Position numbers and translations under genes: made by a program
The notes under the pieces: model-generated
Databases searched by the model: none
Told to the model about the DNA's origin: nothing
Seen by the model: the letters and a program-made list of their open reading frames with translations, nothing else
Part shown: positions 8,404 to 45,115 of the stretch, one piece after another
How positions within the stretch are numbered: the stretch's first letter is position 1
Layout of the letters: each line of letters opens with the position of its first letter
DNA from: Ancylonema sp.
Lineage: Eukaryota
Assembly (NCBI GenBank): GCA_050230475.1
Contig: JBFLGF010000098.1
Location: forward strand, 1-64,000
Length of the DNA stretch: 64,000 nt
Direction of reading: 5' to 3'

Positions 8404-9609
8404 ATGTCTGAAACTACCCTGAGCATGAAGTAAGGATCCGTCATGTTTGTATACATTCAATGTATAGCTTGTCCTGAAAGAGCGAGCTGAAAATGAAATT
8501 TCAGTAACAACCAGCTGAAAATGAGCGCGTATGAGGGTGCTCATTTTCAGCTGGTTGTTACTGAACAGTTTCATTTTCAGCTACAAAGATATTGAACATC
8601 AAAATGAAGATTAATCTGACAGGTAACAGGTAACACATGTTACCTGTCAGAATAATCTTCACACAGTCAGATTAATCTGTCAAATTAATCTTCTGATGTT
8701 CCATATCTTTGTAGCGATGCTCGTAAATACTTTATGTGACGAAAATATTCGGTGCCAATCTCCGGCGCTCATTTCTCCTATTATTATCTCGATTTTCTGA
8801 ATTCCTAGCCAGCTATGTCGACGTTTCAGTAAATTCCTACTATTTGCTCCTTTCTTACTCCGCCGACATGTGTTCAGAAGTATTTTCGTATTTTGCTACC
8901 GCATGTGTTCAGGAATATTCTCGGTGGCTTGGTCGGCACGGGTATTCTCGCCACCTTGGCGACTATCACGGTTGCTTCGGGAGTGGCCATGGCACTCGTC
9001 AGCCCCATCTTGCTGCTTCTGAGCCCGATCCTGGTGCCAGTCGCCATCGCAGCAAGTATGTCTTCTGGGAAGAATCATTTTTTTTTGTGTCGGGCTGTTT
9101 TTTGGGTGAACCAAATTTTTATGTTTTCGGTTATTTTCAGATGCTATAAAATAAGAGTGCAGATTTTCATGTGTTCTCCATCAGTTGTTCTTGCCACAAC
9201 GCATATTTTCGAGCTAAAAGTGGAGTGATAGCCGTGATGGAGATTTGACGACGTGTCCGTTCTGGGTTGATTTGATTTGGTACTGTCACCTTTACTTCCA
9301 GCCGCGCTCTTTTCCCTCATCGGGGGAACCCTCGGGAGCCTCTACCTCTGCTACTGGGTGTTCGAGTACATGAGGGGCGATGGACCCCCCGGCACCGGTA
9401 AAGTGAACAAGGTCATCCGTAAACTGGAGGAAGAGGCTCGCTATGTCTATCAGAAAGGCGAGGAGGGCGTACACGGAGTGATGGGATTGGCTGAGAAAGG
9501 TGTCAACGTGGCGGGAGAGACAACTACGGATGTGCTCGCATCCGTAGTCAGGAAGGCAACGGGCGTGGTTGGTGATACGACGTACGAAGCCACTCACCAG
9601 CCACGCTAA
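8404..9609 (+). CDS. Oleosin (lipid-droplet protein), 3 exons: 8404-8429, 8913-9055, 9302-9609
   Basis: GT-AG introns with compatible phases; long hydrophobic hairpin containing the canonical proline knot PX5SPX3P (PILLLLSPILVP), followed by WVFEYMRGDGPPG as in oleosins. Confidence 0.92.
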
Positions 9610-10593
9610 GAGAAGTGTGGAGGTTCTGGCCGTTGGAAGACATACCAGGCCGACTCGTTGGAGGAGCGGATGGGTTTATTAGTGGTCGAGAGGTTGGAAA
9701 GAAGTTTGACTCTGATTTCGAGCTGGTTCGTACGTTTTGTCTTCGGCCGATGATAGGACTGTGATGTACATTTTTTGCTACATGTATGATAGTGTATAGA
9801 AATATGGTAAGCAACATCGGATAAGTTGGCGTATCGAATAAGGTTTTTTTTTAAAAAAAACTCCATGTGTTGATATCGAGAGGATATGACATCGAGAGGA
9901 TATGGAAATGGGGAGTATATATCCTCATTGATGTGTTTGTGGAATCATTGTGAAAGTATGCATCATGTTCTTTGACTTTCATTATTACGACATGCAATGC
10001 ATTTAATACGAATGCAACTTCAACTTTCATTCTATTTTTTCTGAGTAATCCTTAAGCGTCGTTCATCCATTTTAGGCTGGAAATGAAAATAAAAAGGTAA
10101 GGACTAAATTTATATACCATGAGCCGATCATATCGATTGTCATCATGTTTATGATTATGATTAAGTCACATCATGACAAGGATTGTAGAACTTATGACGG
10201 GTATCATTTTGATTGCGAAGGTATGTAAATGTGACTCATAAGTGTGATGTAAACAATTAAAAATCGTGCTAAGCGCTTTAACTATCAACACAATGAATGG
10301 TATACTGCGTGAAATGAAATAGTTCTTGAAATGCAAAATGAGATTTGTTTGGCATTAATATTTTCGCAAGTCGAAATATCGAAGCCGATTTTCTTGAAGC
10401 CGGAATGCCTCGCGTCCTATGACAATTACTATTGTTATGTTAACAATTTACAAATGAAGTATGTATCGCTATGCTTAGGATGTAGAATGGCGAAAGTAAG
10501 GAAGTATATTGATATCTTTCAACATCTTCTCAACGATGTCAATATATAGACGTCGTGGCAAGTTAACACTTAGCTTGTACGGCAATTTGGTTT

Positions 10594-11017
<424 letters not shown>

Positions 11018-11099
11018 AAGGCAATGAGATGGGAGAAGCTGAAGGTCATGTTTTGCGAGAAAAATATAAATTTATAGCGGCTCTAGACCCCGAATTGAA

Positions 11100-16930: not shown

Positions 16931-17044
<114 letters not shown>

Positions 17045-19676
17045 ATGTTATATCATGCTATACCATTGTATTATATATCATTATGATTATTTTGTCATGT
17101 ATGAAGTACGTCTCGTCAAAATCATGGCTGTCAAATATTTTATTTCCCGTACCTAAATTGCAGAATTCAGAGAGATGATCCCGAAAGTGCCCCGGAAATG
17201 CTCCAAAATTCAATGAGATCTCATTTGACTCAAACTCATCACACCACTAAGATATGATTCCATAGGATTGCGCAATCTAGAAATCAGTGCACCCGTGCTG
17301 CTACAGTGTATGGGTGTGAAGCCCAAAATGTCGTGAAGGGTTTATCGCCGTCGTTCCCCATCGATAGCGTCACTAGCGGACACGATCTTCCCAATCGGGC
17401 GCAAATGATTTCCGCCCCACTAAAGGCGCAACGGGTTTTGTGTGGCTGTAGGTATACGGTGTGTTTGCCACATCGAATGGGGCCCTCAACGCCATTTTAG
17501 GCACTCCTTCAGCCTATTTTGTTGAGGTGCGGACGCGGCAGTTCCGAAGAGGTGATTTCTTATTGTACCTTTTCCACCGTCGGATGAACATCTCGATTGC
17601 GGGTGCATTGAGAGCGGCAAACCGAACGCATTTAAGTTATTGAACCAAATATTTTCCGAACCATTTTTAAAATCGCTCCATGTAATCGTTAGTGCTCATT
17701 TTTGGGATGATCATCGGGATTAAAAAAGTGCTCACAAGTTATTTTCAAGTCGCATTGTACGGAACGGATGTACGGACTACATGTACGGAAGTACGAAGGA
17801 CTATTGAACCACCTATTGATGCGTGTGCAGAGTGTCCCGGTCATACGGGCGGAACACCGGCTGAAACCGGCCAAGTGTATTGCGGGGGTAAGTGTATGCC
17901 ACGTGTAATCAAGAATGTCGCCAATTTGTAATCTTCTCTTTGGTGGAAGACTTCCCACGTGTGAGAAGTGCTTCCATGTACATGAAGTGGGCTTCGTGTG
18001 AGACCATCTTTCTTTTCAAATAATTTTCCGGAAAATAAAGTATCAAAAGGTGAACTCTTCTTTGTGTAAGTGCCACCGCGATTGACGTAAGTAGGGCATG
18101 ACAAGCTTTTGAAGTGTACCGTAGAGTCCTTCCCCTTCTACCCTGCTTTGTCCTCATTCAATCGAAGGTGTATGTGTTTTGTAGGAGCGTTGCGCGGACA
18201 ACTCCAGGTTCAACATGGAGGTTTCTATGCGACATATAGGTGGATAATAATAATAAGAAGAAATTATCAAACACGCAGTCGTTCTCTTGGATCACATCAA
18301 TTGAAATATGTTTTCCTTTCATATATAAGCTGAGGTAGCTAGTTAGTTTCCGACTTAATCTAGCGCAATGGAGCATGCATTCATTTTTGGAACTTAGAGA
18401 TTTTAAAGCTTTACTTTCTCAACACGTGGTCAACACATATGGCAAGAATGGTCGCATGTCGAGACGACCTTCATAGGACCACTTCACACTATGAGATCAA
18501 TAGGGTGTGAGGAAAGTATATCGTGCAAACGGCATTGATTTCCCCCCAATATGTTGTTCTTCGTTGTACTATTGCAGCGATCGCAATTTGGCGAATCCGC
18601 CCTAAAGAAGGGTTGGGATATGATTGGTGATCATATGCCGTGTGCGACGTTTCATTGGCGACATCGGTCGTGGCACAAGCTTGAGGGAGGAATAGTTGGG
18701 AATAATTTTAGAGAGAATGTCATCAGTGGTTCTCTATTATAGAGTTGACTTCTGTTTGGTATTTGGTGGTTGATAAGGTTTGATTTTAGCACAAGGGATC
18801 AACATGCCATAGATAATTCACGGCTCACTCCTTCCCCTTAATACCGTACCGGGCACACTACTATTTCATGTTTTTTCAAAACGATTCTTTTGCTTAATGT
18901 GTTGTTGTTCCGGGATATCAACTCATAAAATTCAGAAAATTGAACTGATTTGAATGATCTATAGCAAACGATTATACCATTTCAGGAAGTTATACAAAAA
19001 TGTTTTGCGTATTTCAATGATTGTTTACAAATCATACCGTGTGCCTAATACTAACCATTTGGTCACATGTTGAAATACTCCGCATATTTCCGATCAATTT
19101 CTTTACATGCAACCTCTTCTCTCCGATTTTTGGATTTTGGTCGGCTAGTTTTGTTGACAATCGTCTCATTTGAAACTAAACATTTTAGGGAGTGATTTGG
19201 TGGTGAAGCAAGGAATTATATTGGGCATGTTTCAATTCGGCAATGCTTACATCATTCTTTTAATTGATAGCGTGATGGAAATTGTCATTTGCGAAAAACA
19301 CGTGACGAGGCCAATGGAGAGCGTGATGTTTAGTTTGTATTTCATCTCTCTTGGGGCCCAATTCCGTGTAGCAGAGCCGTTCCTTCATGTCAAGAACATG
19401 TTCTTCCAAGTCCACCGCTAATTCCATTTTCCTACAACTCCTAGTCTAAAAACACCCCTCGGGTGATTGATGTCGGCTTAAAAAATGCTTGGTTCTCTTC
19501 CCTGCAACAGCAAAAATTCCGGCTTTCGCCAGAAACCCTCCAACAACTAGATCCTGGAATAAATAGTCTCCGAACTCGCTTATTCACCACCCCTCCACTC
19601 CGACTCAAAACTGAATAATTTATGATGGCCAATCACAAGGGTCGGTTCTACGACCTGCTGATCACATCTACGAGCT

Positions 19677-22600
19677 CTAGGTGGCCCCCTTCACTCCGCG
19701 CGGGAAAAACACTCCATTCGTCTTCCCCGCCCCGCCAAAAACGGTCGCCAACACCTTTGCAGGCGTCCGGGAATACGCCACCGCGTCGGATCCACTCGGC
19801 ACCAAATTATGAAGGTCGCCATCCTTCCCCCTCCCGAGGAAGGCGCGGAAGGCAGAGGCTGCGTCCACTAGGGTGTCCACCGTGGCTCCATAGGGGAAGA
19901 CGATCTCCTCCAGAGCAAGAGAGAGGAGGGTGCGGATGGCACCCGCGTGGTACGCTTCTGTGGCCATAATGCCAGAGGCAGTCTGCGGGAGAGAAGGAAG
20001 AGAAAGGTAAGGTACGGGAAGTGGTACAGGGAGGGAGGTGATATGTAACCTGATATATATGTAACCTATACATAATCTATATGTAACCTGAAATGTAACC
20101 TATATGTAACATATGTATGTAACCTATATGTAACATATATGTAACCCCGTTCTGGTGACGTCACCTCCTGTCCACCAAACTTGTGTCGTAAAAGTTGTGG
20201 CCTTGTTTGTTGGACCAGGTTCATTGCTCGCGACCATGGCTTAGTCTATTGCGAGACCAAAATAGGACGAGGAGGTATCTCATGCATGTCACAAATCGGG
20301 AGTCCAGTCCCCAGTCCTGTGCCTCAAAAGTGTACCCACTGCTGAAATGACCTGAGAGAGGTGTGATACCACCAGACAGATCCTGACAACATACAGTAAG
20401 GGGTCGAATACTTTTCAGAGCTTCTTCTGGTTCCCATTTAACAGTCAACAGTTCATGCCATCCATCCCATCTGTCGCTAACCGGAAGAACAAGTTTTGAA
20501 ACGAGTCCCAGAGCGTAGTGGTAGGCCGTGACACCGACGTCCTCAAAAAGGAAGGCTCCGAGGTAGAAGAGAAGGTCGTCTTCATATCTGTGGGCCAACC
20601 AGGAGGGGGAATCAGAAAAGAAGGAGGACACGGTGATCCTCTCCATCAACCACCAAATTCAACCTCTTTTCTTTTTCCTTCTTCCTTCCATGCTTTCATC
20701 CCGATGTAGCGATCCGAATCAACGATGTAAAAAACGATGAAAACCAACGCCGGCAATCAGCTGGAGGGAGCAGTGAGACAGGGACACGTGTGACTCACGG
20801 AGAGAAGGGCACGGGGAGGGAGGTGACATTCAGCGCCCCGAGAACGACTGCTTGAAAGGCAGGACCAATGTCCACGACCGGACACGAGAAAGCATGTACG
20901 CCCAGGGCGGCTCGGATGAGTACCACGTGCGCGATTTCGTCCGCGGCAATGTCTTGCGCGAGGAGAGACGCCTTGGCGCTGAGCAAAGCCTTCTTTCCTC
21001 CGATCGCTCGCGCACCTCGGCCGCCTTGCTTGCGGGTCAGGCCTTTGCCGTGGGCGGCCCAGGAGTAGAATTGCGCCTCCAGGCACTCTGGACACGGTGC
21101 GGGACGGTCACAGTGTTAAGGACCTCGTTATAGAGGACAGTTGGGGACGATTTGGGACGATTTAAAACGATTCGGGACGATTCGGGACGATTTTTTTGCG
21201 ACGTTTTGATGGTACATTTTTCGGATTGGGTGATTTTTGTAAGAGAAATTTACTTTGAGAAACATTCTGTGCCATTTTTTTGTTGTTTTCTACATCGGGG
21301 TTTCCTCCTGTATCGGAGTGACGTCACGGTGAGGGACGAGGTTGGGGGGGACTTGTGTAGATTTGATGGCGAGGAAAGAAACTGATTCAAATTCAAAGTG
21401 TTGGAGTGGGAGAGTGAGTTTCGTGAGTAGTGATTCATTTCGCCTGCTTCCGTTTCCTCACCAAGGTTGAGCGCAAACTGCAGAACGGCAATGTCGGTTT
21501 CGGTGAACACTGGCGGGGCAGCGTACTGCAGAACAGCAAACTCAGTGTCAGTGGATCCGAAATGGATACTCTGCAAACGAAGTGGGTGACAAACGACCCG
21601 AAAATCTGAGAGAGTGATTTTTTTTGTACGTGCCCTTTTCAGAACACCTGCTGGATTCGAATTTAGAACGCAAAAGGAGGAGGAACTCACAGCAGCACAG
21701 CTGGCGGGGGAGGCCTTGGGGCAGCCGCGCACGTTACAAATGCTCTGGGGAGCAACGGGGTCGGGGCCCAGACTGCATACCGAGGAATGGGGGTGGGGGG
21801 GGGGGTCAGGTAACAACATGTGGTACAGGAATCGCCAGCGACGAGTGCAACAAAAACGCGACCTCCACGTCATGGACCTCCGCAGCACAGTGCGATACTC
21901 ATTCTACGTTCGATGTTCTATGTTCGATGTTGAGGGGACAGCGCAGAGGTGTATGACGGGTGGACATGAGGAACTCACACAGCAGGCGCGGAGCATCTTC
22001 GCCCGAAGAGCCCAGTGAGGCCATTGGCCACGATGGTGACGTCAACTGCCGACACGCCGTACGCGGCGGCGGAGGCCCCCACTTGGGAGATGAAATACGT
22101 CGTCTGCGGGTTGTTGAGCTTCATGAACTTGTGCGTCTCGTACATGCTGGCGTCCCCGCCGTACGCGGGGAAGGTGGTGGATCACACGGCGGAGCAACCG
22201 AGGAGGGTGCCGAAGAGGTGGTAGAGGTGGGTGAGGAGCATTCACTGGTTGGAGGTGCACCCGGTGTCGGCATCGTTGGAAGGCTGGGAGGGGGAGGGAG
22301 GGGGGGTTCAGGTGAGGCGAATTCAGATCAGGGTGGTCGCGGGAAAATGCATAACGGCGGTTCCAAGATTGATCCGTAACGCTACCTAGAGAGAGTAATA
22401 TTTGCACCTTGTTCTTAGTGAGGGGAGCCGCTCCTCCATTGTCCAGGAAGTTAACATTACTGGGCTTGCCATCCTCATTGGTGGATTTTGCGGTTCCATC
22501 GAAGAACTGGAGAAGGCTAACTAGTTCGCCATTGACGGTCGCGTTCGCCAGGATACCCGGGACAACCAAGTCGGTGGGGGTTTTTGTATAATTTCCGATC

Positions 22601-23115
22601 ACAACAGTATTGACAAGGATTGTGAGGAGAAAATACTCATGGGCGGGTAAGGTATCGCCGAGAACAGCCGTGGAGTAGTAATCCTGCGAGTAGATAGGGA
22701 ATTGACGATGAGATACATCACAAAGAGGTGTGAATCCCGCAAATGCTACACCAAGCACAGCCAAAGTGGATAGGAGGAAGGGAAGACAGAATAAACTAGC
22801 TGCACGTATATCAGAGCTGCGTCCGGATGTCCTGATGCCACTGGAAAGGGTAAGGAGATATGCTCACGCAGATAGTTATGTTAGCAGGGCGTTCAGCGGT
22901 ACTGCAAGCAGGAAAACAGGGACGTGCACAAGGCGAGGGATAGTAAGTAGACTAAATGTACAGCAGGCAACGAGAGAGACGGTGGATACAGTCATTCGTC
23001 AGCGTCAACGACGGCGCTCAGACGGCCCTCTCTGACAAACGGGAGCTAGGATCACTCACCTGGTGCCCGCGAAAGCGAGCAAGCACGCCAAGATAGCAAC
23101 CAGGCTGAACTTCAT
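19677..23115 (-). pseudogene. 9-exon secreted fusion: signal peptide + truncated-globin-like domain + desiccation-related (PCC13-62/DRP) ferritin-like domain; two in-frame TGA in exon 4. Exons 23115-23060, 22901-22868, 22683-22408, 22283-21979, 21772-21691, 21525-21462, 21087-20799, 20587-20482, 19982-19677
   Basis: All introns GT-AG with compatible phases. N-terminus MKFSLVAILACLLAFAGTSTA. Ferritin-like DRP motifs LQFALNLECLEAQFY, ADEIAHV, FEDVGVTAY, EAYHAGAIRTLL, FFPRGVKG. TGAs at 22244-22242 and 22184-22182. Confidence 0.8.
20040..20145. repeat. ATATGTAACC-type minisatellite in the last intron of the fusion gene
   Basis: About 8 imperfect ATGTAAC units visible. Confidence 0.8.
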
Positions 23116-23754
23116 TTTGATTATGTGAGTAGCGTGCCAACAACGAGAGGCGATCTGCGACGAAACTCCGTAATGAAGTGGCGATGTAGCTTCAACTGGA
23201 GATGAATTGGAGCCAGGTCGGGATTTCAGCTGGAGTGAGAAGCAATCAGAAGACTGACGTGACTGACTGCAGAGCGATAGACGGGGGAACATACCGTACC
23301 CGATTTAGATGAAGTCTGATGGCTAGTGGTCGAAAATAAATTGGGACGCTGCGATTGTCACACGTGTTTTTTGTTGAGGTACAGCCAAGAAGATAAAACA
23401 AAATTCAGCGCTGTGCTAAATGTTCCGGATTGGGTTTGTTACTTGTCGGGACTCTGCTGGCCACCTACACAGATGCTGATAGCCCGGATGCGGTATCTCG
23501 TGCGAGAGAAGCATCCAATTCGAGCACGTGTCAGCAATAATCTCGTACTTTTTTATATTTTCTGGTGGATTAACAATCACCGACAATACCAGCGGCACGC
23601 GGGACACGCCACTGCACGATACGCCAAACACTGTGGGCAAGCTGCCAATTTAGACCGGCTTGTACATTCGAGCTAGGATTGGGCCCCCTCTTCCGCACGT
23701 GACTACCGCCTTGACGTGAAAGGTGTGTTTCACTGTACGGATTAACGAGCGCAT

Positions 23755-24010
23755 GAGCCCAAGATCAGTGGGGAGTCCGGAGTCTAATGAGCCCGGAGCC
23801 CTTAAGCTCCAGGCTCATTGAGCTCGGAGCCCAAAGGATGGAAAAATCCTAGCCTCTGAACCTAAAGAGCCCAAAGAGGCCGGAGCCCAAATCGGAGCCC
23901 GGAGCTCGGAGCCTGGAGCCCAACTCTGTTGGGCTCATTTGGGCTCCTGTGCACTCATTTGAGCTCATCTGGGCTGGTTTGGGCACATTTGGGCTCATTC
24001 TGGCTCAATT
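23755..24010. repeat. GAGCCC/GGGCTC inverted repeat array, probable DNA-transposon terminus
   Basis: Many GGAGCCC units followed by TTTGGGCTC units in the opposite orientation. Confidence 0.5.
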
Positions 24011-27000
24011 GAATGTGAAATCATAAATTTGGGAAAAAGGGTTTTCGTTTTTCAGGGAATAGGTGATTGACGATGTATGATTCTCTGTCGCCGACTCGTT
24101 GCGTCAGTGACTTCATTGTTGAGTTTGTGACCGCAGTCAATCAATCATACTATATATTCTTACAGCAATACATCATCACTGACGTTCACTATTTTTTGTT
24201 GTGTTGCCAATAAGTATTTGTGTGTGAGTTGTAAAAAGTAGGGAGCAGACATGGTCGACAACGACTTAGATCCGGAGCTTGCCGACGCTTTGCTTGTTAT
24301 GCAAGAAGCACTGGATAGTCTAAAGGAAAAATAGAAGCTACAAAACGAGCAAACGGAGAAGATGTCTGAAAAATACCTCTGGATACATCATTTCCGCAAA
24401 CGTCCTAGAATTTATGGGAAGAGTAGAGCGTCTCTGGACGTTCACGCGGAACATGGATACGCCGTCTCGAAACCGACTCAAAACGGAGACCATGTTGAAG
24501 CTCTGTATCATACAAGCAGCCATGCAGAAACGTGCGCTGGAAAAGGAAGTGGCGAGGGCGACCCAAGGGGGAGGGAAGGCAGCACCTCTCGCAATACGGA
24601 TGCAGGTGAAGTACTGCCGCTTTAATCGACAGCGGACGTTTCAGAGGCGGCGCGTGAAGGAACCATGGTAGCGTCGATGAAAGCATCCGCGGATGAGAGG
24701 GTTGCATTGGAAGAAGCCATTGAGTTGGAGGGGTTGGATGATTTGGAGGAGCCTTGGAACTGGATTGGGCATTCCACCCTACCTCCAGACGGTGACGTCA
24801 ACGAAAGCGATGCCACATCTTTTATGGGGGAGAAGAGTCCGTTGAAAGAGGTATTCATGTCTAGTTTGGGTGGGAAGTAGACTTAGTAGTCTTAGTAGCC
24901 TCACACGCTAGGAGTTGGTGCAATGGTTAGTGTGGTACATATGTATTTTACACGATTGATCAATATAAATGCTTTGTATCACTTTCACTCACTTGACTCA
25001 CGTGCCGAAAATATGTTTTGTTCCAAAGGCACGCACTCTTTCTTTTTTTTTGCTTAATATTGTCCCTTAGGGAAATAGTAAATAATCCTATGCAATCTCG
25101 AAGATAGCAGTGAAAGATAATCACCATGCCAATCTACATCTACCTCTATTTCGGACTCAGAGTGTGAAACTTCCAACACCAGTTCTGAAAACGATTACCC
25201 TTTCTCATTCTTAGTACAAGTGGACTACATGGAGGAAGACACCAATACAATTTCACTTGGTTCCGGCTCTACAGATTCTTCATCCACAAATGCCACTACC
25301 ATCCACGACGACAAAAACAACAAGACGCTACCAAATTTACCCTACAACCTTCCGATTGACTTGAAAGATCCCCATCCTCAACACAATGTTCAAATGATAC
25401 ATTACCAAGATGACACTATACTACGTTTATGTCCACCACATTCAGCTCCGAAAATACCATCAAAGAAGAACATGTCTCATAACCAATCAAGACAACGTGT
25501 GATGAAAAATACTTGTTCATCAAAGGCATTTATGGTTTTGCAAAACACAAGTTACCTTTAACATGGGAATCTGAATCCAAAATATTTTCCCTTCCAAATG
25601 TCTGCACACCCTGATGCTGTGATGTCTGCACACCCTGATGCTGTGATGACTACACATCCAACAATATCGACAACTTGTCATTTTTCAAATTCTGAGAGCA
25701 ACCCTTGTGCTACATCATTACATGCTACAATTTGTGACTGTGATCCTGATCACTTTACCCTTTTATGTTGATTACCCATATGTGAACGCATAGCTCTTCA
25801 ATCTGGGGGGGGGGAGTTACGATATTCCAGCCTCCTATCTGCACCTCCACTACATCGACAAGACCCCTTTTACCTTCATCGACTGATTCCATCATCGATG
25901 ACCCATTTACCCTACCGATCTCATTTGGCACGTCAGCTGTCATGCCTATATGAATCTTCAGCTAGAAACCCCTGTGTTTTAATCACAATATTAAAATAGC
26001 CGCACCGCTATGTTTTTCCGCCTTGTCACGACTCCGCCCCCGCTCATTACATTCCGAGCTTCGTCGGTGACCGGCGCCCTTTTATTAAAAATTCGAGTAG
26101 TCAACCTTTGACTAGCACCCCTTTGTATTTAAATTGATTAGACTACGTGTCAGACTTGTCGTCAATAGCAATCGTGATCGTAGCTCTTTAGATCAACAAC
26201 TCATAACCACTTAGAGATGTCTGCAACAAATTATAGCGTGCGCACCGAGTTGATTTAGAGATTTCCTGCCACGCGTATCCCAGCGAGCGCGCGAGTAGAA
26301 TATTCGAGTTTGACAATAAAGACCTTGTACAACTTTCAAATCTCAGCTTTCGCTGAATTTGACGCTGAAGAGATTTCCTTGCACACCATTTTTTTCTTCG
26401 GCACTCTGAATTATTTGCCTTGCGTAATCTGTGATATTTTGCTTTCGCAAACATCGTGTGTATCGAGCGTTCGCTCATTTGTGATTACTTTGCATCAAGC
26501 TGTCGTTTTTCAATTTGTTAATTACCCTCGTTACCAAAGTTATCGATTGTCTGACCTGCTGCGCAGTCAGAAATCAGCGTTCGCTCATCCGTGCAATCCA
26601 TTCGCACATCTCTTTTGTTGCTATTGACAAGCTTTGCAAAACGGTATCATAATCGATTGCTTGCTGATCAAGATTCGTCGCATCTGTTGCTGTAATCTTG
26701 TGTCGCTCTCGTTACTTTTAAGCCGTCAAGTAAGAGCAGCGTGTGATAGCTTGCTAGTAGTGAGTAGTACAACGAATAAAGCTCGAAAACTGCCTCGTTT
26801 GTGTGATTGTTTACAATCACTGCCGGATTCAAGCGAGCATCGTACTCTGAGTTACAAGATTCCAGCCTCCTATCTGCACCTACACTGCATCGAAAAAACC
26901 CCTTTCAGTCGATACTTTGTGTGCGATTACCCCTTCATCGACTGATTCCATCATCGATGACCCATTTACCCTACCGATCTCATCTGGCACGTCAAACTTG

Positions 27001-27206
27001 CCTATGGCGATCCAAATTCTGTGGATGATGAGATCCCAGATGCTGTGGGAAATCCATCACCACAGCTTCCGAGTTCTCCTCTTCCTCAGAGTGCGGATCT
27101 TCCAAAACTTATCAGCGATCCTAGTAGAGACGATGAGGACGAAGATCACCTAGATGATGGTCCATAATGGTATCTAGATGATGCTACTCCTCTTAATCCG
27201 CTTGGC

Positions 27207-29434
27207 GTGACGGACGACTCTTCTGAAACTTCTATCGATGATCCAGAGTCTGACCCTCGGCATGTTCGTCGATCTGCAAGGGACAATAGAGGAGTGCATC
27301 CCAACAGATTTGCTGCTGCTTTTGTTGCCAACTTAGAGAGTGAGATAAAGACACCCACGACTGTGGAGGAGGCTCTTAACAGTCCACAACGGCCTCAGTG
27401 GCAAGCTGCAATGGTCGTTGAAATGGGAAGTCTACAAGAGAACCGGGTCTATCGACTTGTGCCTAGGCCGAGGGGGAAGAAAGTTGTGAAGTCAAAGTGG
27501 GTGTTCAAGATCAAATTCAATGTTGATGGTTATGTAGAAAAATACAAAGCAAGAATTGAGGCTAAGGGATTCAGTCAAGTAGAGGGAGTGGACTACGATC
27601 AAACCTTTTCTCCAAGTGTTCGATTTGAGAGTATTCGTCAACTTGTCGCCATGGGAGCTTCCAGGGGTCTACACATGCACCACAAGGATGTTACAACAAC
27701 TTTTCTCTATGCGCCCCTGGAAGAGGAGGTGTACATGGAAGCTCTTGACGGCACGTGTGGGCGTGGTGAAGCAGATTTAGTGTGGCTGCTACTCAGGTGC
27801 CTGTATGGCCTCAAGCAGGCGCCGAGAGGATGGAATCAGCACATCGACGACGTGCTAAAAGGCATGAAGTCTCATCGCCTGGCTTCAGATTTTGGCCTTT
27901 ATATTCTGGGAGAAGGGCCAGAAGCACTCTACTTGGCGCTATATGTGGATGACGTGTTTCTCCTATACATGAGGCTGGCGACTATTTTTGGGGTGAAAGG
28001 AGGGCTGGGAAAGCGCTATAACATGAAAGATCTGGGAGAAGCAAAGTTCTTGTTGGGGCTTGAGATTCGAAGGCAGCCTGATGGCAACGTGTATTTGGTG
28101 CAAGATAAATATTTCAGAGATCTGCTCACAATGTTTGGGATGCAAGACTGCGATTTTGCTGCTAATCCTCTTGAGCTGGGTGTCATTTTTTTTGCAAACT
28201 GTGAAACTGCTTCTGAATCTGCTAGAATAGAGGGTGTGGGATACAAGTATGCAATGGGCAGTTTGCTATATCTGACTTCTGGCACAAGACCCGATCTGGC
28301 AGCTGTGGTTAACTCCTTGTGTCGATACAATCAGCAGCCAGGGGACAAGCATTGGGAGGGGGCTAAGAGAGTTTTGCGCTGTCTAAAGGGAACTGTCGAT
28401 TTGGGGCTGATGTATAAGAAAGAGAGTGATTTGCTAGTCATGGGTTACTCATATGCTAGTCATGGTGATGACGTCGACACGAGGAAGGGGAAAATTGGCT
28501 ATGTCTTTCTTAGTGGAGGAGCTGTTGTGCGTTGGAAAAGTGGTATGCTGGAAACAGTCACACACTCAAACTGTGAAAAGGAATATTTGGCATTGAGTGC
28601 TGCTGGCAATGAAGCTATTCATTTGAGCCAGATGCAAAAAGAGTTGGGTATTGGTGGGGGGAGTGTGCCGTTGCTGGGGGATAATGAGAATTCTTTGAAA
28701 CTTGTTGAGAATCCTGTCTTACACAAAAGCTCCAAACACACCAAGATCAAGTATCATTCCATTCGAGAGAGGGTGTCCAAGAAAAAAAACCAATTTCCAG
28801 TTTGTAAAGAGTGAAGACCAGGTTGCTGATATGTTGACAAAACCGGTGTTTGTCAAGGTGTTGAAGAAGAATTGTGCTTTGGTGGGGTTGGTGTATGAAA
28901 AATAGTTTCGTGAGTTCTGTGAGTTTTTGTTGCATTTTGTTTGTAAAATCGATATCGTTTTCGTTATCGTTTTTGGAGGGGGAATACAAAAGTACTTAGG
29001 GAGGGGGTGTTAGTTTTTAGGGAATGTGAACTTTTGTCGTTATATCGATTTTAGCAATACCGGGAATTTAGCTTTAGTTTTGTCGTTATTCAGCAAATGC
29101 ACGCTGCAGGCCGGCTGCAGGCCGATGTCCTTGTTTCAATGATTACTTGGCCATCTGGCACAAGTGTCGATAAGAACTAGTTGATGAATTGGCAGATGCT
29201 TAGATATGATTGGCAGTTGACTAAGTAGTTTCGATATCTGTAGATCCTTTGACGAGGCAGCAATCGACTGTAATAGGTCTGGGCTTGCATGCTGAATTCG
29301 TTAATCAATACTTTCTATTTCAAACTTGCACTTTTGTTGTGTCGACGTTTGTAATGACGTGATCCGTTTGATTCAAAGAGATTAAGAAGAAGTGAACTTT
29401 ATTCTTGCATCGATGGCAGAAGAAAGTTCTCACA
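27207..29434 (+). mobile_element. 5'-truncated Ty1/Copia retrotransposon: RT-RNase H, PPT and 3' LTR (29008-29434)
   Basis: SKWVFKIK, YKARIEAKGFSQVEGVDY, LYGLKQAPRGW, LYVDDV, TRPDLA, KHTKIKYHSIRE, DQVADMLTKP (frameshift in the A-run near 28790); PPT AGGGAGGGGG at 28998-29007 followed by TGTTAG; LTR homologous to 39459-39870. Confidence 0.93.
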
Positions 29435-30111
29435 CATCAGACAACCATTCTTTTGAGTCACTCATCATTTATGTCGAGCGCCAACCCTCCCATAAAGGCG
29501 AATCCGACAAAGCACAAACAAGTCTAGGGGGAAATGCTTCACTTTGCCCAAAGTGGTCAGGGTCGGCGGTAAGTTATAGGCACAATCCACTTTGTGACTT
29601 TGACATGTGTTATACGGCTTTTGGCAAAAACAGACCTGCGATGATGCACCAAACCGGAGCTCGTGAATAGTAGGGCTTGTTATTTGCGCCTCGTATAATA
29701 TTATTGAATCACCCTACGTTGTGGCGTACAAACTTTCTATTTGTCAAATCTGATATTCAGAATTGACTATTGACTCTAACTTGTATCAATAAGGTTGCCA
29801 CCATGACATTTAAGAGCCAACAAGGAGCAAGGCTAGCAGGATGACATTCATGAATGTACTTGGCTTTGTAATGAGAGTTGGGTACAAACGCTTCACCAAC
29901 AACAAATTCGTTAAAAAAAACGAATGTCCACGTCACAAGTTGCAATCTCGACACTCGATGACACTTCTACTTTGCTTTCAAAAGAATATGACACAAAACT
30001 AAAGCCAACAAACCTTGCAAATTTATGTACACGACAAAAAACAAAAAAAAACACTTTTCCACGATTTTATCTACACCCCAACAACACCGCGCAAAAACCG
30101 CTCCCCCACAC

Positions 30112-32842
30112 TTATATCGCACCATCACCCTTCCCTTCATCCACATCATCCGCTGAACTAAGTGCTAGCGGACGAATTTCTTGGACGTCACATACACCAG
30201 TTGACACATAATGCGGCCTTGCATGGCCTTCCCTATCACCTTTCTTTGACCGAGCCAAAGCGATGTCTCTATCTCTCGGATACGTCCAATAGAGGAACGT
30301 GTATGTCAAACAACAGATAGTGAATGGAATAGCTACGGTGACGAGGAGGCCTTGCGACAACGCCCTCGCGTTTGTTCTATCTTCCATAGCGCGCGAATCT
30401 CCACCCGCTTTTTGCCCAGTCTCGGCGACGGGGATGTAGCCAAAGAATCTCTCTGTCAAAATGCCGACAATTGGAGGAGCGAAAGCGGCCACACTCATCT
30501 CAAGCATCCGATCCAGGGCATAGATGCTTGTGCGGAGGTTCTCGGGGACTATTTCCGCAAGAATGGGGCTGCCATTTTCAGAAAGTACACACGGAGATAG
30601 GGGGATTTGAAAGTGATCCGCTGACAGCACCTCAAAAAAATAAATTGAAAAAAAACGACTCTAATACGTCACTTGCTGCTGGCATCTTCAAGACATCTAG
30701 GATGAAAAAAACCAGTCTACTTTCTTAAAGAGACCGGAATGTGGATAGGTGGGCGTGGATGTTTTAGCAAAGCATTGGCTTTACCACCAGGCATGCTCAC
30801 AGACACGAAACACACTACGAGAGCAGCCAAGGTCAGTCAGCAAGTAACAAGACTTGGCAATCCCGCGAACCAACCCTTGCTTCCTTCTACCCACACCAGC
30901 TGTGCACTCGTCCTCCCCCACAACTTCAAATCGTCAGTGCCAGGTGGCGGACAGAGATAGGTGCACCAACCAAAGGGCAGGCAAGGACCTCACTTGTTAG
31001 TACTCGATCCATTCCACGACACCAGGAACCCAAGGCCGGCAAGAAGCGCCGACTACAGCGCCGCAAAGTCCGGATCCGGCGGGGTCCACCACAGGAGCAG
31101 GAGGGACAGCGGCACAGCCACCCCCAAGCTGAACTGCGCACACACGATGCGGCCGCTGTCCGGGAAGAGGGTGGCCATCTTGTCCCCCACCCACCCCCCA
31201 ACCAGCGACCCCAGGCAGCACCCAACCGCGAAGCTTCCCAGAAGGAAGGCGGTGGTGGCGTGGGAGAAGCCCGTGAGCTCCAGCCACATGGCGGAGAAGG
31301 ACATGGCCGCCCACGGGAATGAGCCCACCGCGCCTTGGGCTACGAGGAGGAGGAAGGTGGGGACGGATACTACAGTTCGGACAGCAGACCAGAGTTTGTG
31401 GAAATCCGCCCTCCATTCGACTTGGTCCAGGCGGGATTCACGCTCGGATCTGGTGAGGGGAAGCAGGAGGGCAGACTGAAAACCAGGGATCCAGGGCGTA
31501 GTATATGCCAATTGAAAAGTGTTTGATTTGAGGTGGAAGGAAGAGGGCTAGTGGGTGACTCAATTTTCGTTCCGGGTTGAACTGGAATATTGTAGCAGGC
31601 AGTCGAATACCAGACCCAGTACTGAAAGGCAATGCAAAGCACGAGAAGGAGGTCCAAATTTGTCCTCGTGAAAATCAACCTTGTAAGAAAGACACCCGTT
31701 TCTCAAGGTAGTATACCATGACAATCACCTGCCCACGACCCTCAATGAGCAATCACCTGCCCTGCTGATGACGCCTCCCGCAGCATCTACGTGTAGGTAG
31801 TCGTTGCTCGAGCGATCAACGGCATAGGATTGGCCCTCGTCATCCCCGCCATACAATCCCTGGTCGCCGATTCCTCAACTGCCGAAGCTCGAGGCACAGC
31901 GTTTGGATGGCTGGCACTTACCAGCAACTTGGGAGCGATTGCAGGCGGCTGCTTCGGAGTTCTTCTAGGGGGCTCAGAGCCCTTTGGTATGACAGGCTGG
32001 AGGGTAGCCTTTCACACTGTGGCCTTCATCACCTACGACACCGCCTTCTGTGTGTGGAAGTATGGGGAGGAGCCGCAGTCCAGTGAAAGGTGCGACGCCA
32101 AAAGAGGACTGTAACTTTTTGGACGAGGGTTGAGCGTTCAGAGTCCATCAGAGTCTCTCAGATGGATTTAAACACAGTCGTGGATTTCTGTTCTGAGCCC
32201 GTTTGTGCTCATTGATCAGACTCGTCTGTAACAGCATACGGCCTTCATTGAGTCCGGATGCGGCTTGGGCCGTTTGAATGCAGGATGTCTACATGTACAC
32301 GTACTAGATGTACGTCCCAGCGGGAACGAGACTATAGTGCCCCCTATTTTAAAGCATACATGTCTACTACATTGGATTGATTCGTACAAGTAAAATGTGG
32401 AATGATGGTTTTGTCATTAGTTATATGCACGAATTTCAACATGCTGCCACTGATAATTTGAGAAAATGATTTGACGTGCCAACAACAATTACGACTAATC
32501 TATCACCTCACGTCTGTTTTTCTTTACCTCGGCATATACTGAGGCCACAGCCACAGCTGAAGTAGCAAGCCCCCAGACCAATGCTCCAGCGCAAATAACG
32601 TTCAACCGGTTAAATCGCAGTGAAAGGTACGCAGCCAGTGGGTACGAAAGTGCCTGTGCGGCTGCCCTAACGAACGTAAGCGTGCCAAGCCCTGAAGGAG
32701 TTGTCCTGAATTCAGTTCCGACCTCTTTATATACAGACGGCAAAAGTGACTCATCTGCCTTCTCCACTATGGAGGCAAGGTTTATGATCACAAAAGAGCG
32801 CAAAACGGTGTCATGCCACCAGGCAAAAATACGAAGTGCCAT
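30112..32842 (-). pseudogene. Spinster-like MFS transporter; exons 32842-32528 (-), 31797-32089 (+, inverted), 31449-30994 (-, in-frame TAG at 31055-31053), 30568-30112 (-)
   Basis: Plant MFS motifs INLASIVEKADESLLPSVYKEVG, ARAINGIGLALVIPAIQSLVAD, QGAVGSFPW, SWNGSSTNNPILAEIVP, IYALDR, YWTYPRDR; splice phases 0/2/2 all compatible. Confidence 0.85.
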
Positions 32843-33607
32843 ATATAGCAACACGCATTTGCTGCGAGTAAATTGTGGAGACGGACGATCAGAATGTCGC
32901 GCACCCGGTGAATTGCAAACAGTTGGCAACTAGATCTTAGAAGCAGCAGTACAATATCTAAAGTTACAAAGTATATTTTTCACAAAACACTACGTGATTT
33001 GGTATGTGCTTGACGTGCCAAATTCACCGCGCTACTTCATAACTAAAATATCATAAAATTGTTCACTTCCCGGGTGTCCCGTCTTCTTGGACAGCTCGCC
33101 TCTCATGACTCGGTAGTGTGTAAGTTCTTAAACGGTGTGAAGGCACGGTACGCCTGGCTGCATGAAAAGGAATCTGACACCTCCTGCGTTTCACATGGCC
33201 CGCTTCTCAGGGCTCGGGGCTTGAAGCCCGGTGCCCTGCCTTCTGTCCTGTACGAATCATCTTGTGGCCACGTGCCACGTGGTGCCCATGGCCATCTGTC
33301 GCCCAGAAAAATTGCGCGGAAATAATGGTGTATGTTTTTTGCCATATTTGTTCTGCCAGTCTTTGGCTCTTTTTGCCGCCTGCATACTCCCTCGATTTTT
33401 CTACCAGGCAAGCATCAGCTTCCCCCATGAACCCTGACAGGATTCTACAGCGTAGAAAGTATCGTTGCCTGACTTTGGACTAGTGAGAGCAGCCGAGCGT
33501 GTAATTGAGTGCGCAGCCAAGTCACTCGCACTTGTCAGCGCTCCCCTCGAAGACGATCGTCAAAGGACACTAGAGGTCTCTGACAGCTCGGAATTCAGCC
33601 GAACGCG

Positions 33608-36600
33608 ATGAGTGGAGGAGGCAGTCAGCCTCAGTTCCGGTACACGCAGCCTCCTTCCAAGGTTCTTCACGTGCGGAATCTGCCATGGGAATGCACAGAA
33701 GAGGAGCTCATAGAGCTTTGCAAGCCCTTCGGAAAGATTCTCAACACGAAAATGAACGTTGGTGCCAATCACAATCAGGCGTTTGTCGAATTCGTAAGTG
33801 CTTCTTCTACCGCCCTTAGTCTGTTTTTTTCGAGTCTATGGTTTCGAATTTTCAGGTGCGTTACTGTACTTTGATATTGTCACCCGCCGTTATGTATCGG
33901 TGAGCTCCACTTTAACTCCACGTTGTGTGGCACCCGATCCGCAGGCTGATATCAATCAAGCCATCCAAATGGTTTCATTCTATGCGTCGTCTTCGGAACC
34001 AGCGCAAGTGCGGGGCAAAGCTGTTTATCTGCAGTATTCCACTCGACAGGAAATCGTGACGACTAAGCAAAGTGGAGATGTTGCTAGTAATGTGCTCCTG
34101 GTTACCATAGAAGGAGTTGAGGCTGGGGATGTGAGCATCGACGTTCTGCATCTGGTGAGTTCCGCACCGACACGTTATCACGGTTTGGAAGTTCTCGTCA
34201 GCAGTGCTTTATTTGCACAGTCCGTGTCGTTTTGGGTCTGACGGGGCTGAAGTCATGCTGAGCAGTCAACCCCGTCGTCCGGGTTCCAGGGTTCAGCTAG
34301 TGTCCGACTTAGGTATGCGTCTCGGATTCGCATCTCCGTTCTGGACCTGCTTTGCCGCCCTCCCACAGTGACTGTTTGGTTCCTTGATGGAAGTTGCTCC
34401 TCGGTGACCAGGTTCTGTTGCCGACCTCATTTCGGCACGCATCAGGACTGACCTCGAGGCGCACGCTTGTTCTGTTTGTCCACTCACCCCTAGCCTGCCT
34501 TTCCACCCCTCGCTCATCACGTGCCCTTTGCTCTCCCCTACATTCCACCCGCCCTTTGCTCTCCCCTCAATCGCACCTACCTTTCCCCTCCCCCGCTGTC
34601 CGTGTACACTCTACGTATGGAACGGCTTAGAAGGCAGTCGACAGGGTGATAAAGCCACCGAGTTTTGCACAGCATACACGATGCTGAGGGTATTGTCGTT
34701 GTTGGTTCGCACTAGTGGCCCAGATACCCTCATGGTGTCGTTCACTTACTTCCTTTAATGCACCACTGGGGAAGTGATGGTCGTCCGCAGGGTTCTAAGT
34801 TTCAGATGACCCTATCAGGGTGTCTTATCTTTGCACCGTCTGTCATCACAGCTCATTAGACATGTCTTCTCTGGACACTATTGCTTCTGTTCAATTGAAG
34901 AGAGTATGTTGCTCTTGTTTGCCACCGAAAACCGGGTAGAGTTTCATAAAGTTTGATAGAGTGGTAGTGTTTCTCGTAGGGGTCTTGTAGTCGCCACCAA
35001 GTACGAGGGACACACAAAGTCCCTCGTGTCAATAGAGTGATCTGTGATGGAAATGGACAGCTTGGAGTGCCGCCTTGAGTTTCTAAAGTCCTTGTCCTGC
35101 TCCCGTTTCTCGCTGCTGTTAAAATCGATAGTTCCTCGAGATTATTGGAACATTATCGTATTGGTTGGACTTTGCAGCTCGTGGAACACGTCGGTTGCTC
35201 GATCGGTTGGTTGTTTATCGTGTGGTTGTTGGTTGGATTTTTCGTAGGTTCTCATTCCCCTCCATTTCTGTGTACTTTGAGAACAACATTGGATGCAGGG
35301 TGAAACGTTAGCGGAGGTAGATGACGTCGAAACAACCTCAAATCCCTTCTGAAATAATTATTTTTAAGTTTTCGTCGTCTCTCCCTTCCTTTCTTCCTCC
35401 AGGTGTTCTCAGCATTCGGGTTCGTCCACAAAATCGCAACTTTCGAGAAAAGTGCTGGCTTCCAGGTACGTTCCCCTCATTACTGCGCTTCTTCCCACCC
35501 CCTAGACCTTCACCTGCATACATAAAGTAAGGGCACTAGTATGACTAGTCTTTGACATTGACACATAGCGTTTGTCTTTGTGCTTCTCTGTGTGTACGTT
35601 TGTGTTTCCAGGCTCTTGTTCAATTTGGAGATCCCGACACGGCTTCCCAAGCCAAGGGTGCCCTAGAGGGACGAAGCATACCAAAGTAAGGGAAGGGACG
35701 TGGGCTCTTTTGTGACACACCAACCGTGTCAGCGGTCTTGGAAGTTGTAAAAGAGAGATGCAGGAGGGGGATGTCCCAAGAGAACAGTGATCGACACTCA
35801 TCGATCCTTCTTGTCGTACTGTGTGACTTGATGTGTTTGTGACAAATGCGGTCGTGAGATAATGCTATCCACACAGGAATAGCATCCAGTCAACTGCAAC
35901 AGCCCCCTCCCTTGGATACTGTCAAACCCCTCTACAAGCACAATATTCGTCATCTTTTCGCGTCTTTCCAGAGTCGAGGGTCGAGTCTACAGAAAACTGC
36001 ACTATAGAATTGTAGAATTCCGTTTGCCAAATCTGTGGTGCCTTTGAAGTGGCTGCGCTTTTCCACAGAGTCTTTTCTTTTTTTATTGTTCACCAAAGTG
36101 CGTACACAGAGCTTTGACTGTCGTTTCTTCAATCCCCCTCCGTGTCTCAACGGCGCCTTGCGTCAGGATTCATGGACCCGTAGCGGAGACACTAGCAGCA
36201 GAATGGTCACGGAGACTGCACAGGAAGGTGGCCCTACTGTAGTCTGACGTGGCTTTGCCCCGTTGCTCTGTTGCTCTACGTCTCTTCTTCTCAGGTACCT
36301 CCTCCCGGAACACGTCACCTCCTGCAGTCTGCGCATCTCCTTCTCTGCGCACAACGACCTCAACGTCAAGTTCCAAAGCCACAGGAGCAGGTGGGGAACA
36401 AGTCTCCTTCTGTCTTCTTTTGCTATGGGGAAGCGTAGGGCTGCGTCAAAAACCCTACGCTGATAGAGAGAATTACAGGACGGATGAACAGTCAGCATCC
36501 CTGTGGGCGCGCTGTTGGTGGGGAGTTTTCTGCCACCTACACAGAGGGTGTGCATTTACAGAGGGTGTCCTTTACAGGGTTTATGCCTTGAGTCCACAAA

Positions 36601-44301: not shown

Positions 44302-45115
44302 ATGGCCGCCGTTGCCATGTCCGCTGCCGTTGCCCCCGCCACCTTCGCTGCTGCTGCCTCCACCAAGAGCAGCTCCCAGCAGACCGTCTCTGCCTTCGTT
44401 GGCCTCAAGAGCAGCGTGTCCACCAGCAGCTCCTTCTCCTCCAAAACCGTCTCCAATGGCTCCAGGATCAGCTGCATGAAGGTGATTAAAATGTCTGGAT
44501 ACAGCACGCTTAAGCGCAGACTATCTATTCGTTAAAGATTCAGCTCCATGTTTTCAAGATCTAGACGTGTAGTTCTCAAAATCAGTCCAACAAGGGTTGA
44601 GAGATCTGCTCCTTCATAGAAATTTATAGCATGGTTGATCCGGGTAAAGGTTGGATACTTCCATCAACGTCAACGTTTTCTCAATGCACTGTCTCTCATA
44701 TTTCCTGACATCATTCTGGTATGTTATTGCTCAGGTGTGGACCCCTGTGAACAACCCCAGATTCGAGACCCTATCCTACCTCCCCCCCCTGTCCGTGGAT
44801 GACATCATTAAGCAGATCGACTACATGCTGAGCAAGGGATGGTTCCCCTGCATCGAGTTCGACATGTGTGGCGTTGTCAGCCGCGAGTACAATGACGGTC
44901 CCGGCTACTATGATGGCCGATACTGGACAATGTGGAAGCTTCCCATGTTCGGATGTACCGACGGTGCTCAGGTTGTGAGGGAAGTTGCCGAGTGCAAGGC
45001 TTCCTACCCGGAGGCCTACATCCGTGTCCTGGGTTTCGACAACATCAAGCAGGTGCAAGCTGCGTCCTTCATCGTCCACAAGCCCCGCCCCTCGTACTCC
45101 AAGTCCTATTTCTAG
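44302..45115 (+). CDS. rbcS: Rubisco small subunit precursor; exons 44302-44481, 44735-45115
   Basis: Ser/Ala-rich transit peptide ending [10 protein letters not shown], then [49 protein letters not shown]; intron at the conserved position just after the start of the mature protein. Confidence 0.98.

Follow-up and report, generated by a model that had tools for sequence, protein, structure and literature searches.

A predicted extracellular truncated hemoglobin of Ancylonema sp. with mostly fungal relatives

The best explanation of a minus-strand, intron-bearing gene in Ancylonema sp., and one that we hold with moderate confidence, is that its domain A is an extracellular group 1 truncated hemoglobin, likely binding heme through two histidines, that is integrated in the host genome and that streptophytes likely acquired in the distant past from early-diverging fungi or relatives of these. 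The gene lies in the window (the whole stretch of 64,000 nucleotides analysed), in which no second copy of domain A was found. Spliced translation gave a signal-peptide exon and exons 2–5 for domain A, followed by exons encoding a ferritin-like part (Table 1). The introns are all GT..AG, 120–499 nt long and in phase, and the three internal ones were found again, independently, by an automatic spliced alignment to the family profile run as a control. The initial annotation, which had proposed spliceosomal introns within 21691..22901, was thus borne out: 22901 is the start of exon 2 and 21691 the end of exon 5, and the seven motifs that it named occur in the given order in spliced exons 2–5, with four residues between QSIC and CP in the last. 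It mentions neither exon 1 nor the pair of in-frame TGA stops that exon 4 contains.

Table 1. Features of the gene, by position in the window
Feature	Position	Strand	Remarks
Exon 1	23060..23115	-	Start codon and hydrophobic signal-peptide-like segment
Exon 2	22868..22901	-	Ends with the first conserved Cys, C30 (84/84 rows)
Exon 3	22408..22683	-	Predicted globin A and B helices, most of the ~70-residue B–E insert
Exon 4	21979..22283	-	Core of the 2/2 globin, with predicted helices E, F, G and H
In-frame TGA, residue 136	22242..22244	-	Cys in P0001 and in one paralog contig
His141, predicted distal His E10	22227..22229	-	88/88 rows; register from hhalign
In-frame TGA, residue 156	22182..22184	-	Gly in paralogs
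His173, predicted proximal His F8	22131..22133	-	88/88 rows; lines up with the region around the heme His in Tetrahymena trHbN
Exon 5	21691..21772	-	Cys-rich C-terminal clamp: C236, C241, C249
Exon 6	21462..21570	-	Ferritin-like domain begins; acceptor 21570 or 21525, each in frame
Exon 7	20799..21087	-	Ferritin-like, PF13668, 36.7 bits (cut-off 24.7)
Exon 8	20482..20587	-	Ferritin-like; PF13668 positions 79–110, E 0.004
Exon 9	19677..19982	-	Last part of the ferritin-like domain, with the stop codon; PF13668 E 0.005

A group 1 truncated (2/2) hemoglobin fold is predicted for domain A with high confidence, from an AF2 model (pLDDT 88, pTM 0.83) not of the window copy but of P0001, its closest intact homologue. 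P0001 is 68% identical to the window protein, with 18 of the first 19 residues the same and 67% identity over exon 3. In a VIA fold search of this model, all 12 chains with Z of at least 8 among 48,161 were truncated-type globins. The top five belonged to group 1 (Z 11.4–12.4, rmsd 1.7–2.2 Å, 116–119 residues aligned of 116–127), the best Z of 12.4 (rmsd 1.7–2.1 Å, 117–118 residues aligned, covering the whole globin) falling slightly short of the 13 below which the tool advises caution with helical bundles; groups 2 and 3 scored lower (Z 9–10.5). The top 15 Foldseek matches were likewise all group 1 truncated hemoglobins, at E of at least 0.08, with none at 0.001 or better. Searched against PDB sequences, the family profile matched Tetrahymena trHbN best (E 0.0075), it ranked globin ORFs first among 472 bacterial ORFs, and hhalign aligned helices E–H with group-1-type globins of bacteria at 96% probability (E 2e-9 to 5e-9). 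No globin Pfam match was obtained for the window exons or P0001, and no Pfam match at all for the domain A exons or six full homologues. Five members (P0024, P0041, P0138, P0193 and P0244) passed the PF01152 cut-off; all are tandem repeats, whose scores add up. The globin is disguised by the insert and six conserved cysteines, its core aligning over model residues 24–238 and not as a compact trHbN domain of ~110–130 residues. A diatom protein searched against the PDB with phmmer gave no match; matches to crAss tail-hub proteins in Pfam and the PDB fell below cut-off and were taken as chance.

The family probably binds heme. The invariance of the two histidines (Table 1) suggests bis-histidyl coordination, to which we give somewhat better than even credence: the proximal ligand would be His F8, and the sixth site would be taken by His E10. 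The equivalents in P0001 are H172 (F8) and His140 (E10), the latter matching, in the bacterial profile, the His that precedes Gln E11; the E10 assignment is one of sequence position. In the same hhalign register (P0001 His140 = E10), E7 is Leu137 and E11 is Leu141, and B10, assigned by eye, is Val58, so that the Tyr B10/Gln E7/Gln E11 network of high-O2-affinity trHbN-1 is absent. The six cysteines are conserved in 84–87 of 84–88 rows; they may form three pairs that, together with N-glycans, would stabilise the protein. An extra Cys pair is common to the window copy, P0001 and P0289, and is lacking in fungi. A crude hydropathy measure, applied without a control to 215 full-length-like members, scored the N-terminus as hydrophobic in 175 and found a hydrophobic tail in 198; the tail is absent from the window copy and from Klebsormidium. 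Secretion would be directed by the signal peptide, and most members would be anchored by the GPI-like tail.

Among the nearest known systems is trHbN (Mycobacterium HbN 1idr, Tetrahymena 3aq5, Shewanella 7tt9), with which the family shares a predicted 2/2 core over the whole globin length (Z 11.4–12.4), the proximal His F8 and a Tyr-x-Gly..Met motif ahead of the F helix. Whereas trHbN has ~120 residues, the family has ~230, with the ~70-residue B–E insert, a longer EF loop and the Cys-rich C-terminal clamp; it also differs in its signal peptide, its GPI-like tail and its distal residues. Cyanobacterial GlbN and Chlamydomonas THB1, both hexacoordinate trHbN-1, are small, mostly intracellular proteins, unlike the present family, which is predicted to be secreted, glycosylated and disulfide-bonded, its coordination likewise being a prediction. 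What they share with it is an endogenous E10 ligand; according to PMC11904497, E10 can supply the sixth ligand, and GlbN employs a distal His there. Early-diverging fungi also have group 1 T globins. The available part of the fungal globin census of Hoogewijs et al. (2012; PMC3287990) reports T1 globins in only two of 165 genomes, Allomyces and Batrachochytrium, and does not mention the present family, which is common in Ascomycota. Many members carry an automatic database label of heme-thiolate haloperoxidase, which are also secreted fungal proteins and possibly heme-binding in common with the family. The label looks machine-made: 13 proteins scanned at E ≤ 5 and 53 scanned at E ≤ 0.001 gave no haloperoxidase Pfam match, and the fold search returned globins, with no haloperoxidase fold among the matches listed. 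We consider that identity unlikely.

Downstream of exon 5, the GPI-like tail of P0001 is replaced by an in-frame run into the ferritin-like domain. Exon 6 has no start codon of its own nearby, and exon 9 is 39–44% identical to bacterial proteins, those annotated being ferritin-like (10 listed of 111 plasmid records). Judged by sequence, a real globin–ferritin fusion is a good probability, with a putative splice from exon 5 to exon 6; across that splice, the window copy is likely a lineage-specific chimera whose tail exon was swapped for the ferritin-like domain. No ferritin fusion occurred in 53 homologues scanned, and folding exon 9 from its sequence alone gave no usable model (pLDDT 47). The domain is of the same type as, and near bacterial forms of, the desiccation-related ferritin-like proteins (PF13668, pcC13-62/DRP type), but differs in standing after a globin-fold domain without its own start. 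For algal DRPs, a bacterial origin is proposed in PMC9434271.

The family profile search found 1232 proteins; the 93 organism-named entries among the best 120 were all fungi, and exon 3 alone matched a Claviceps cluster at E 6.9e-14. The resemblance to an uncharacterised, mostly fungal secreted family, from which the initial annotation had started, is therefore real. Nearly all named homologues are indeed fungal hypothetical proteins, but the family does have a distinguishing trait in its predicted truncated-hemoglobin fold. Members are present in chytrids, Monoblepharidomycota, Dikarya, diatoms (including Nitzschia) and the streptophyte Klebsormidium nitens (GAQ90081.1), with tandem forms of two to four domains in chytrids and diatoms. 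No chlorophyte, angiosperm or named bryophyte appeared among the 93 named rows, nor among 70 named rows in the best 120 of 780; the broad chlorophyte and streptophyte presence that would have spoken against transfer was thus not seen among the matches listed. Two matches lay in prokaryote genome records, both intron-bearing; these records are contaminated by fungal DNA carrying the family, and no genuine prokaryotic member was found. We found no viral relatives, and a plasmid search with P0001 gave nothing meaningful. A metagenome scan yielded 41 loci at 33–55% identity, none of plant type, and the ESM Atlas returned ascomycete clusters only, with feature scores under 0.9. We found no paper calling the family globins or a plant horizontal transfer; published transfer lists may still contain the gene as a hypothetical protein.

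In a 64-row tree, five streptophyte-type rows (three without organism name) formed a clade (98/83) lying among fungi when rooted on diatoms; in a 29-row tree the clade was broken (8% of bootstraps). Plant-type copies were nested among fungi in both free trees and fell outside Dikarya, their sister being chytrids in the former (91/55) and Dikarya plus Gonapodya in the latter (83/86). This nesting speaks for the fungus–streptophyte transfer suggested earlier, but fungal monophyly was not rejected (p-AU 0.163), and for that reason transfer as such stays unproven. We see the chances of a fungi-like donor as evenly balanced. Because K. nitens and Nitzschia carry the family, any transfer would date far back and involve a donor among the early-diverging fungi or their kin; such a transfer to streptophytes is plausible.

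The fullest order of events that we can offer is doubtful as a whole, and is as follows: overlooked extracellular, GPI-anchored, bis-histidyl truncated hemoglobins in filamentous fungi, chytrids, diatoms and early streptophytes would serve at the cell wall in dealing with NO, ROS or heme; one would have passed from chytrid-like fungi to streptophytes before Klebsormidium split from the land-plant line, and would then, in the present lineage, have been fused to a bacterial-type ferritin-like domain, giving a secreted heme-plus-di-iron protein. What is new is the globin-fold prediction for a large orphan family: more than 1000 sequence clusters, most of them from common filamentous fungi and bearing a hypothetical or haloperoxidase-like label, would by this prediction be secreted, surface-anchored group 1 truncated globins, suggesting extracellular NO, ROS or heme chemistry in fungi and algae. 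With Klebsormidium providing a dated anchor, the streptophyte copies are a candidate case of genes passing between early fungi and the algae from which land plants descend. Of lesser weight is the window copy itself, probably a broken, lineage-specific chimera.

Other origins must be weighed against an old transfer. A fungal contaminant or chimeric assembly would account for the absence, among the contigs listed, of any joining the gene to a plant protein-coding gene, and fungal DNA does contaminate the two prokaryote records noted above. The plant setting given earlier stands for the window, which contains oleosin, RbcS and a copia RT (each above its Pfam cut-off), but not for the contigs. 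Yet contigs of two runs cover 17051–21771 and 22356–24112, the latter extending into repeat DNA of high copy number; the gene and its flanks show similar word depth (about 115–126, run X2); the introns are longer than fungal ones and in other positions; and diverged paralogs occur in the same sample. Given the gene's own introns, the paralogs and the repeat, we dismiss simple contamination, against which the initial annotation had also argued, and regard this reading as extremely improbable. Recent transfer from a filamentous ascomycete, favoured by the best named BLAST matches of the window model (ascomycetes, 50–54% identity), is also very unlikely and largely refuted: forcing the window copy and P0001 inside Pezizomycotina was rejected (p-AU 0.030), Klebsormidium carries the gene, and the extra Cys pair sets these copies apart from fungi. 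The comparison of intron positions with fungal homologues, proposed as a check, turned against a filamentous donor, with none shared between the window gene and the 16 intron-bearing loci of 21 fungal-type loci. Vertical descent of the same globin-fold family from an ancient eukaryote, or several transfers (including alga to fungus), with loss in most lineages, is possible though unlikely. Diatom members fit such an older origin with losses, as do the wide distribution, the position outside Dikarya, and the failure to reject either fungal or streptophyte monophyly (p-AU 0.277 for the latter). Against it, identity between plant-type and fungal domains is about 50% while the diatom branch is long, no intron position is common, and many losses are required given the groups missing among the named rows listed.

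The nature of the protein also admits other readings. Leu at E7 and E11 and the lack of Tyr B10 would leave a pocket without an O2-stabilising hydrogen-bond network; this points to an extracellular role in electron transfer or in the buffering of NO/ROS rather than in O2 transport, which we propose tentatively, at somewhat less than even confidence. GPI-anchored fungal heme carriers exist, e.g. CFEM proteins, and with this parallel, the predicted secretion, GPI-like tail and Cys stabilisation, the tandem forms, and the fusion to a ferritin-like domain would all suit a cell-surface heme scavenger or carrier (hemophore); the complete 2/2 pocket with two invariant histidines, like that of redox-active GlbN, makes a hemophore improbable. 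As for the window copy, its allele is likely dead through one or two recent stops, and the paralogs, known from short contigs, remain open, lacking either stop. Of 63 highly conserved columns the window copy retains 58 and departs in five, each of these differences being found in P0001 as well, which points to a recent breakage. Recoding of TGA (as Sec or Trp) was rejected, since the paralogs have Cys and Gly at the two sites and other ORFs of the window end normally. An intact gene, with the stops as assembly errors or a minority allele and the chimera a functional protein, is doubtful: the X1 contig over 22110–22385, one letter different from the window, retains both tested stop letters (residue 136 lies outside the listed window-like contigs of run X2). 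The preserved columns are consistent with intactness, however, and the window letter at 21965 disagrees with both runs; at residue 156, where X1 has the TGA, the window-like contig of the deeper run X2 has a Gly codon, as deduced from depth sums (153.4 + 153.5 = 306.9).

The feature singled out by the initial annotation is real, and by its predicted fold domain A is a variant of the group 1 truncated hemoglobins. All seven motifs named in that annotation were found, in the order stated, within exons 2–5, which make up only part of a nine-exon gene (both strands were read). The eight introns of the gene are all GT..AG, 120–499 nt in length, and compatible in phase. The closest relative is P0001, an intact Logan protein of 289 residues with 68% identity across 251 residues and the same leader. 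Its AlphaFold model, built from an 89-row alignment (pLDDT 88, pTM 0.83), was compared with 48,161 PDB chains; Z ≥ 8 was reached by 12 chains, all truncated-type globins. The top five were of group 1 (Z 11.4–12.4, rmsd 1.7–2.2 Å), with alignments covering nearly the full target and spread over model residues 24–238. Foldseek returned group 1 globins in all of places 1–15, yet with E of 0.08 or worse. At the level of sequence, profile comparisons independently agree with the predicted fold: the best PDB matches of the family profile were Tetrahymena trHbN, the profile put globin ORFs at the top of a set of 472 bacterial ORFs, and hhalign against 13 group-1-type domains excised from these ORFs reached a probability of 96% across helices E–H.

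In the hhalign register, F8 is occupied by His172 of P0001 and E10 by His140, and Leu fills both E7 and E11; B10, from a B helix assigned by eye, is Val. Both histidines are invariant (88 of 88 rows) and six cysteines nearly so. Because an insert of about 70 residues separates the B and E helices, Pfam misses single-domain members. Automatic database labels already call two family members globins; no description of the family was found in the literature searched. Crude hydropathy, with no control alongside, gives a leader to 175 of the 215 full-length-like members and a hydrophobic tail to 198. The family protein would be secreted, disulfide-stabilised, and mostly GPI-anchored, and would hold a bis-His heme, perhaps serving at the cell surface in redox work or as a buffer for NO/ROS. 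This role is suggested by PMC11904497, which states that an E10 residue may ligate iron to form a six-coordinate complex with easier electron transfer, that GlbN has a distal His, and that high O2 affinity is conferred by Tyr B10/Gln E7/Gln E11. The main rival is heme scavenging; P0280, whose fusion partner is a cupredoxin domain, fits an electron-transfer role. Diatom and chytrid members (P0193, P0244, P0041, P0022–P0024, and P0280) have two to four domains in tandem, and the insert is shorter in the diatom ones.

Features of the window in order of position
Feature	Position	Strand	Remark
Oleosin	8833–9228	+	
Long (TA)n array	10475–11080		
Long (TA)n array	16935–17040		
Nine-exon gene	23115 to 19677	−	
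Ferritin-like DRP domain	19677–21570	−	bacterial type; in frame downstream of domain A
Start of exon 6	21462–21570	−	tandem repeat of 12 residues, the copies diverged, giving a second possible acceptor at 21525
Domain A	21691–22901	−	exons 2–5
Copia-type LTR element	23510–29585		
MFS transporter	30112–32929	−	
Presumed PTB-like RNA-binding gene	33798–38452	+	exons tried gave no Pfam match
RbcS	44303–45115	+	one intron after transit peptide; short C-terminal extension
Copia-type LTR element	48792–50357		
UbiA/COQ2-like prenyltransferase	53199–56679	−	

Exon 1 encodes a hydrophobic leader and exons 6–9 a ferritin-like domain (PF13668), with exon 7 above the Pfam cut-off. The last of these exons is 39–44% identical to bacterial proteins, which carry the name ferritin-like where annotated (10 of 111 records were listed). 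Exon 6 lacks a start codon of its own and has two candidate in-frame acceptors (21570 and 21525), so the simplest reading is a splice from exon 5 to exon 6 that would join the globin and ferritin-like parts in one chimera, uniting two modules both of suspected microbial origin. A bacterial origin is cited for algal ferritin-like DRPs in PMC9434271. Intron 5, if left unspliced, is also an in-frame open stretch. A representative-library search gave 181 matches (150 listed); among 53 family-search proteins then scanned, 8 of them unrelated bacterial repeat proteins that were removed, none had a ferritin fusion. P0001 ends in a Pro/Ser-rich spacer and a hydrophobic tail, with the ferritin domain absent.

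The window copy is likely such a chimera in broken form. Exon 4 is interrupted by two TGA codons in frame, one at residue 136 and the other at residue 156. Contigs were compared from runs X1 and X2, which represent one sample, possibly the window's own. The window-like X1 contig retained the tested letters of both stops; in the deeper X2, a window-like contig had a Gly codon at the second, and the first lies outside the window-like X2 contigs listed. The copy retains 58 of 63 highly conserved columns, all 5 differences being common to P0001. The breakage thus appears to be recent, allele-specific, or in part assembly error. Exon 4 also drew two or three further contigs at ~84–91% identity, which are paralogs, with Cys and Gly in place of the stops. 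One such contig (window 21991–22139, X1 and X2) has a one-base insertion at 22075, so that one or more of the other copies may carry a frameshift.

The family is largely fungal. The family profile retrieved 1232 proteins; all 93 named among the 120 listed were fungi (89 Dikarya, 4 zoosporic). A plant-weighted profile retrieved 780, with 70 named among 120 listed: 69 fungi and Klebsormidium nitens GAQ90081.1. The EukProt transcript P0289 is 57% identical to P0001 and shares an extra Cys pair with it and the window, and the listed library matches included a four-domain Nitzschia (diatom) protein named bacterial-like globin. Among 185,579 prokaryote species, the only two matches were intron-bearing fungal-type genes (L001 1–529 and L002 2980–4341, in Pedobacter sp. 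and a 117-kb contig of a Deltaproteobacteria MAG), and these are contamination. As far as the cited texts extend, group 1 T globins are reported from no more than two fungal genomes out of 165 (PMC3287990), no secreted fungal T globin is shown (PMC7475203), and microbial transfer is frequent in streptophytes (PMC12513842, whose main text does not contain the word globin).

The proposed likeness to a fungal secreted family held and a horizontal origin is probable, but the proposed filamentous-fungal donor was not supported. In an IQ-TREE tree of 64 of 258 domains, picked to thin ascomycetes, the window, P0001, P0289, Klebsormidium, and its close relative P0140 formed one clade (98/83), weakly adjoining Chytridiomycota (91/55) and lying inside fungi if rooted on diatom-type rows. 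When the tree was confined to 29 rows, named ones and plant-type ones, with the long Tilletiaria branch excluded, this clade split in two near the base of a Dikarya clade (90/93). AU tests, on groups defined after an initial tree had been seen, gave p 0.163 for fungi as a single clade, 0.277 for the five plant-type rows as one, and 0.030 for the window and P0001 within Pezizomycotina. Intron positions, suggested for comparison with fungal homologs, did not match: spliced alignment of 21 of 43 fetched loci, including several near-duplicates and metagenome loci, showed 16 to be intron-bearing, with introns falling at profile positions 62.1, 135.2 (16/16), 173.2, and 185.1, as against 31.0, 123.0, and 224.2 in the window. 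Recent transfer from filamentous fungi is therefore unlikely on these trees, tests, and introns. The origin of domain A in streptophytes is uncertain, but probably horizontal and ancient; we favor an old transfer from early fungi, at about even chances with ancient inheritance followed by loss. Judging from open frames, P0137 appears to have the exon 3 borders of the window, and the P0140 domain appears intronless on its 29-kb contig. Seven members branch deeply (P0290, P0323, P0302, P0293, P0301, P0310, and P0316), some on 10–18 kb contigs without apparent introns; the identity of their owners could alter the rooting.

Contigs of X1/X2 covered 17051–21771 in one piece and 22356–24112 in another that enters a high-copy repeat; no gene-bearing contig among the pieces listed reached a plant coding gene. 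Word depth across the gene was about that of its flanks, and the copia element ~400 bases upstream of the gene start was of very high depth in both runs. Run X4 yielded only short contigs; one of 133 bases matched exon 1 (window 23060–23117) with 5 differences, its end coinciding with that of the exon. The run may represent RNA from a paralog, though it is not on record as RNA. Oleosin, RbcS, and the copia reverse transcriptase exceeded the Pfam cut-off in the window. RbcS marks the host as a streptophyte: its 23 best PDB matches score 165–190 bits, as against ~145 for longer-loop chains, which we take to be those of Chlamydomonas.
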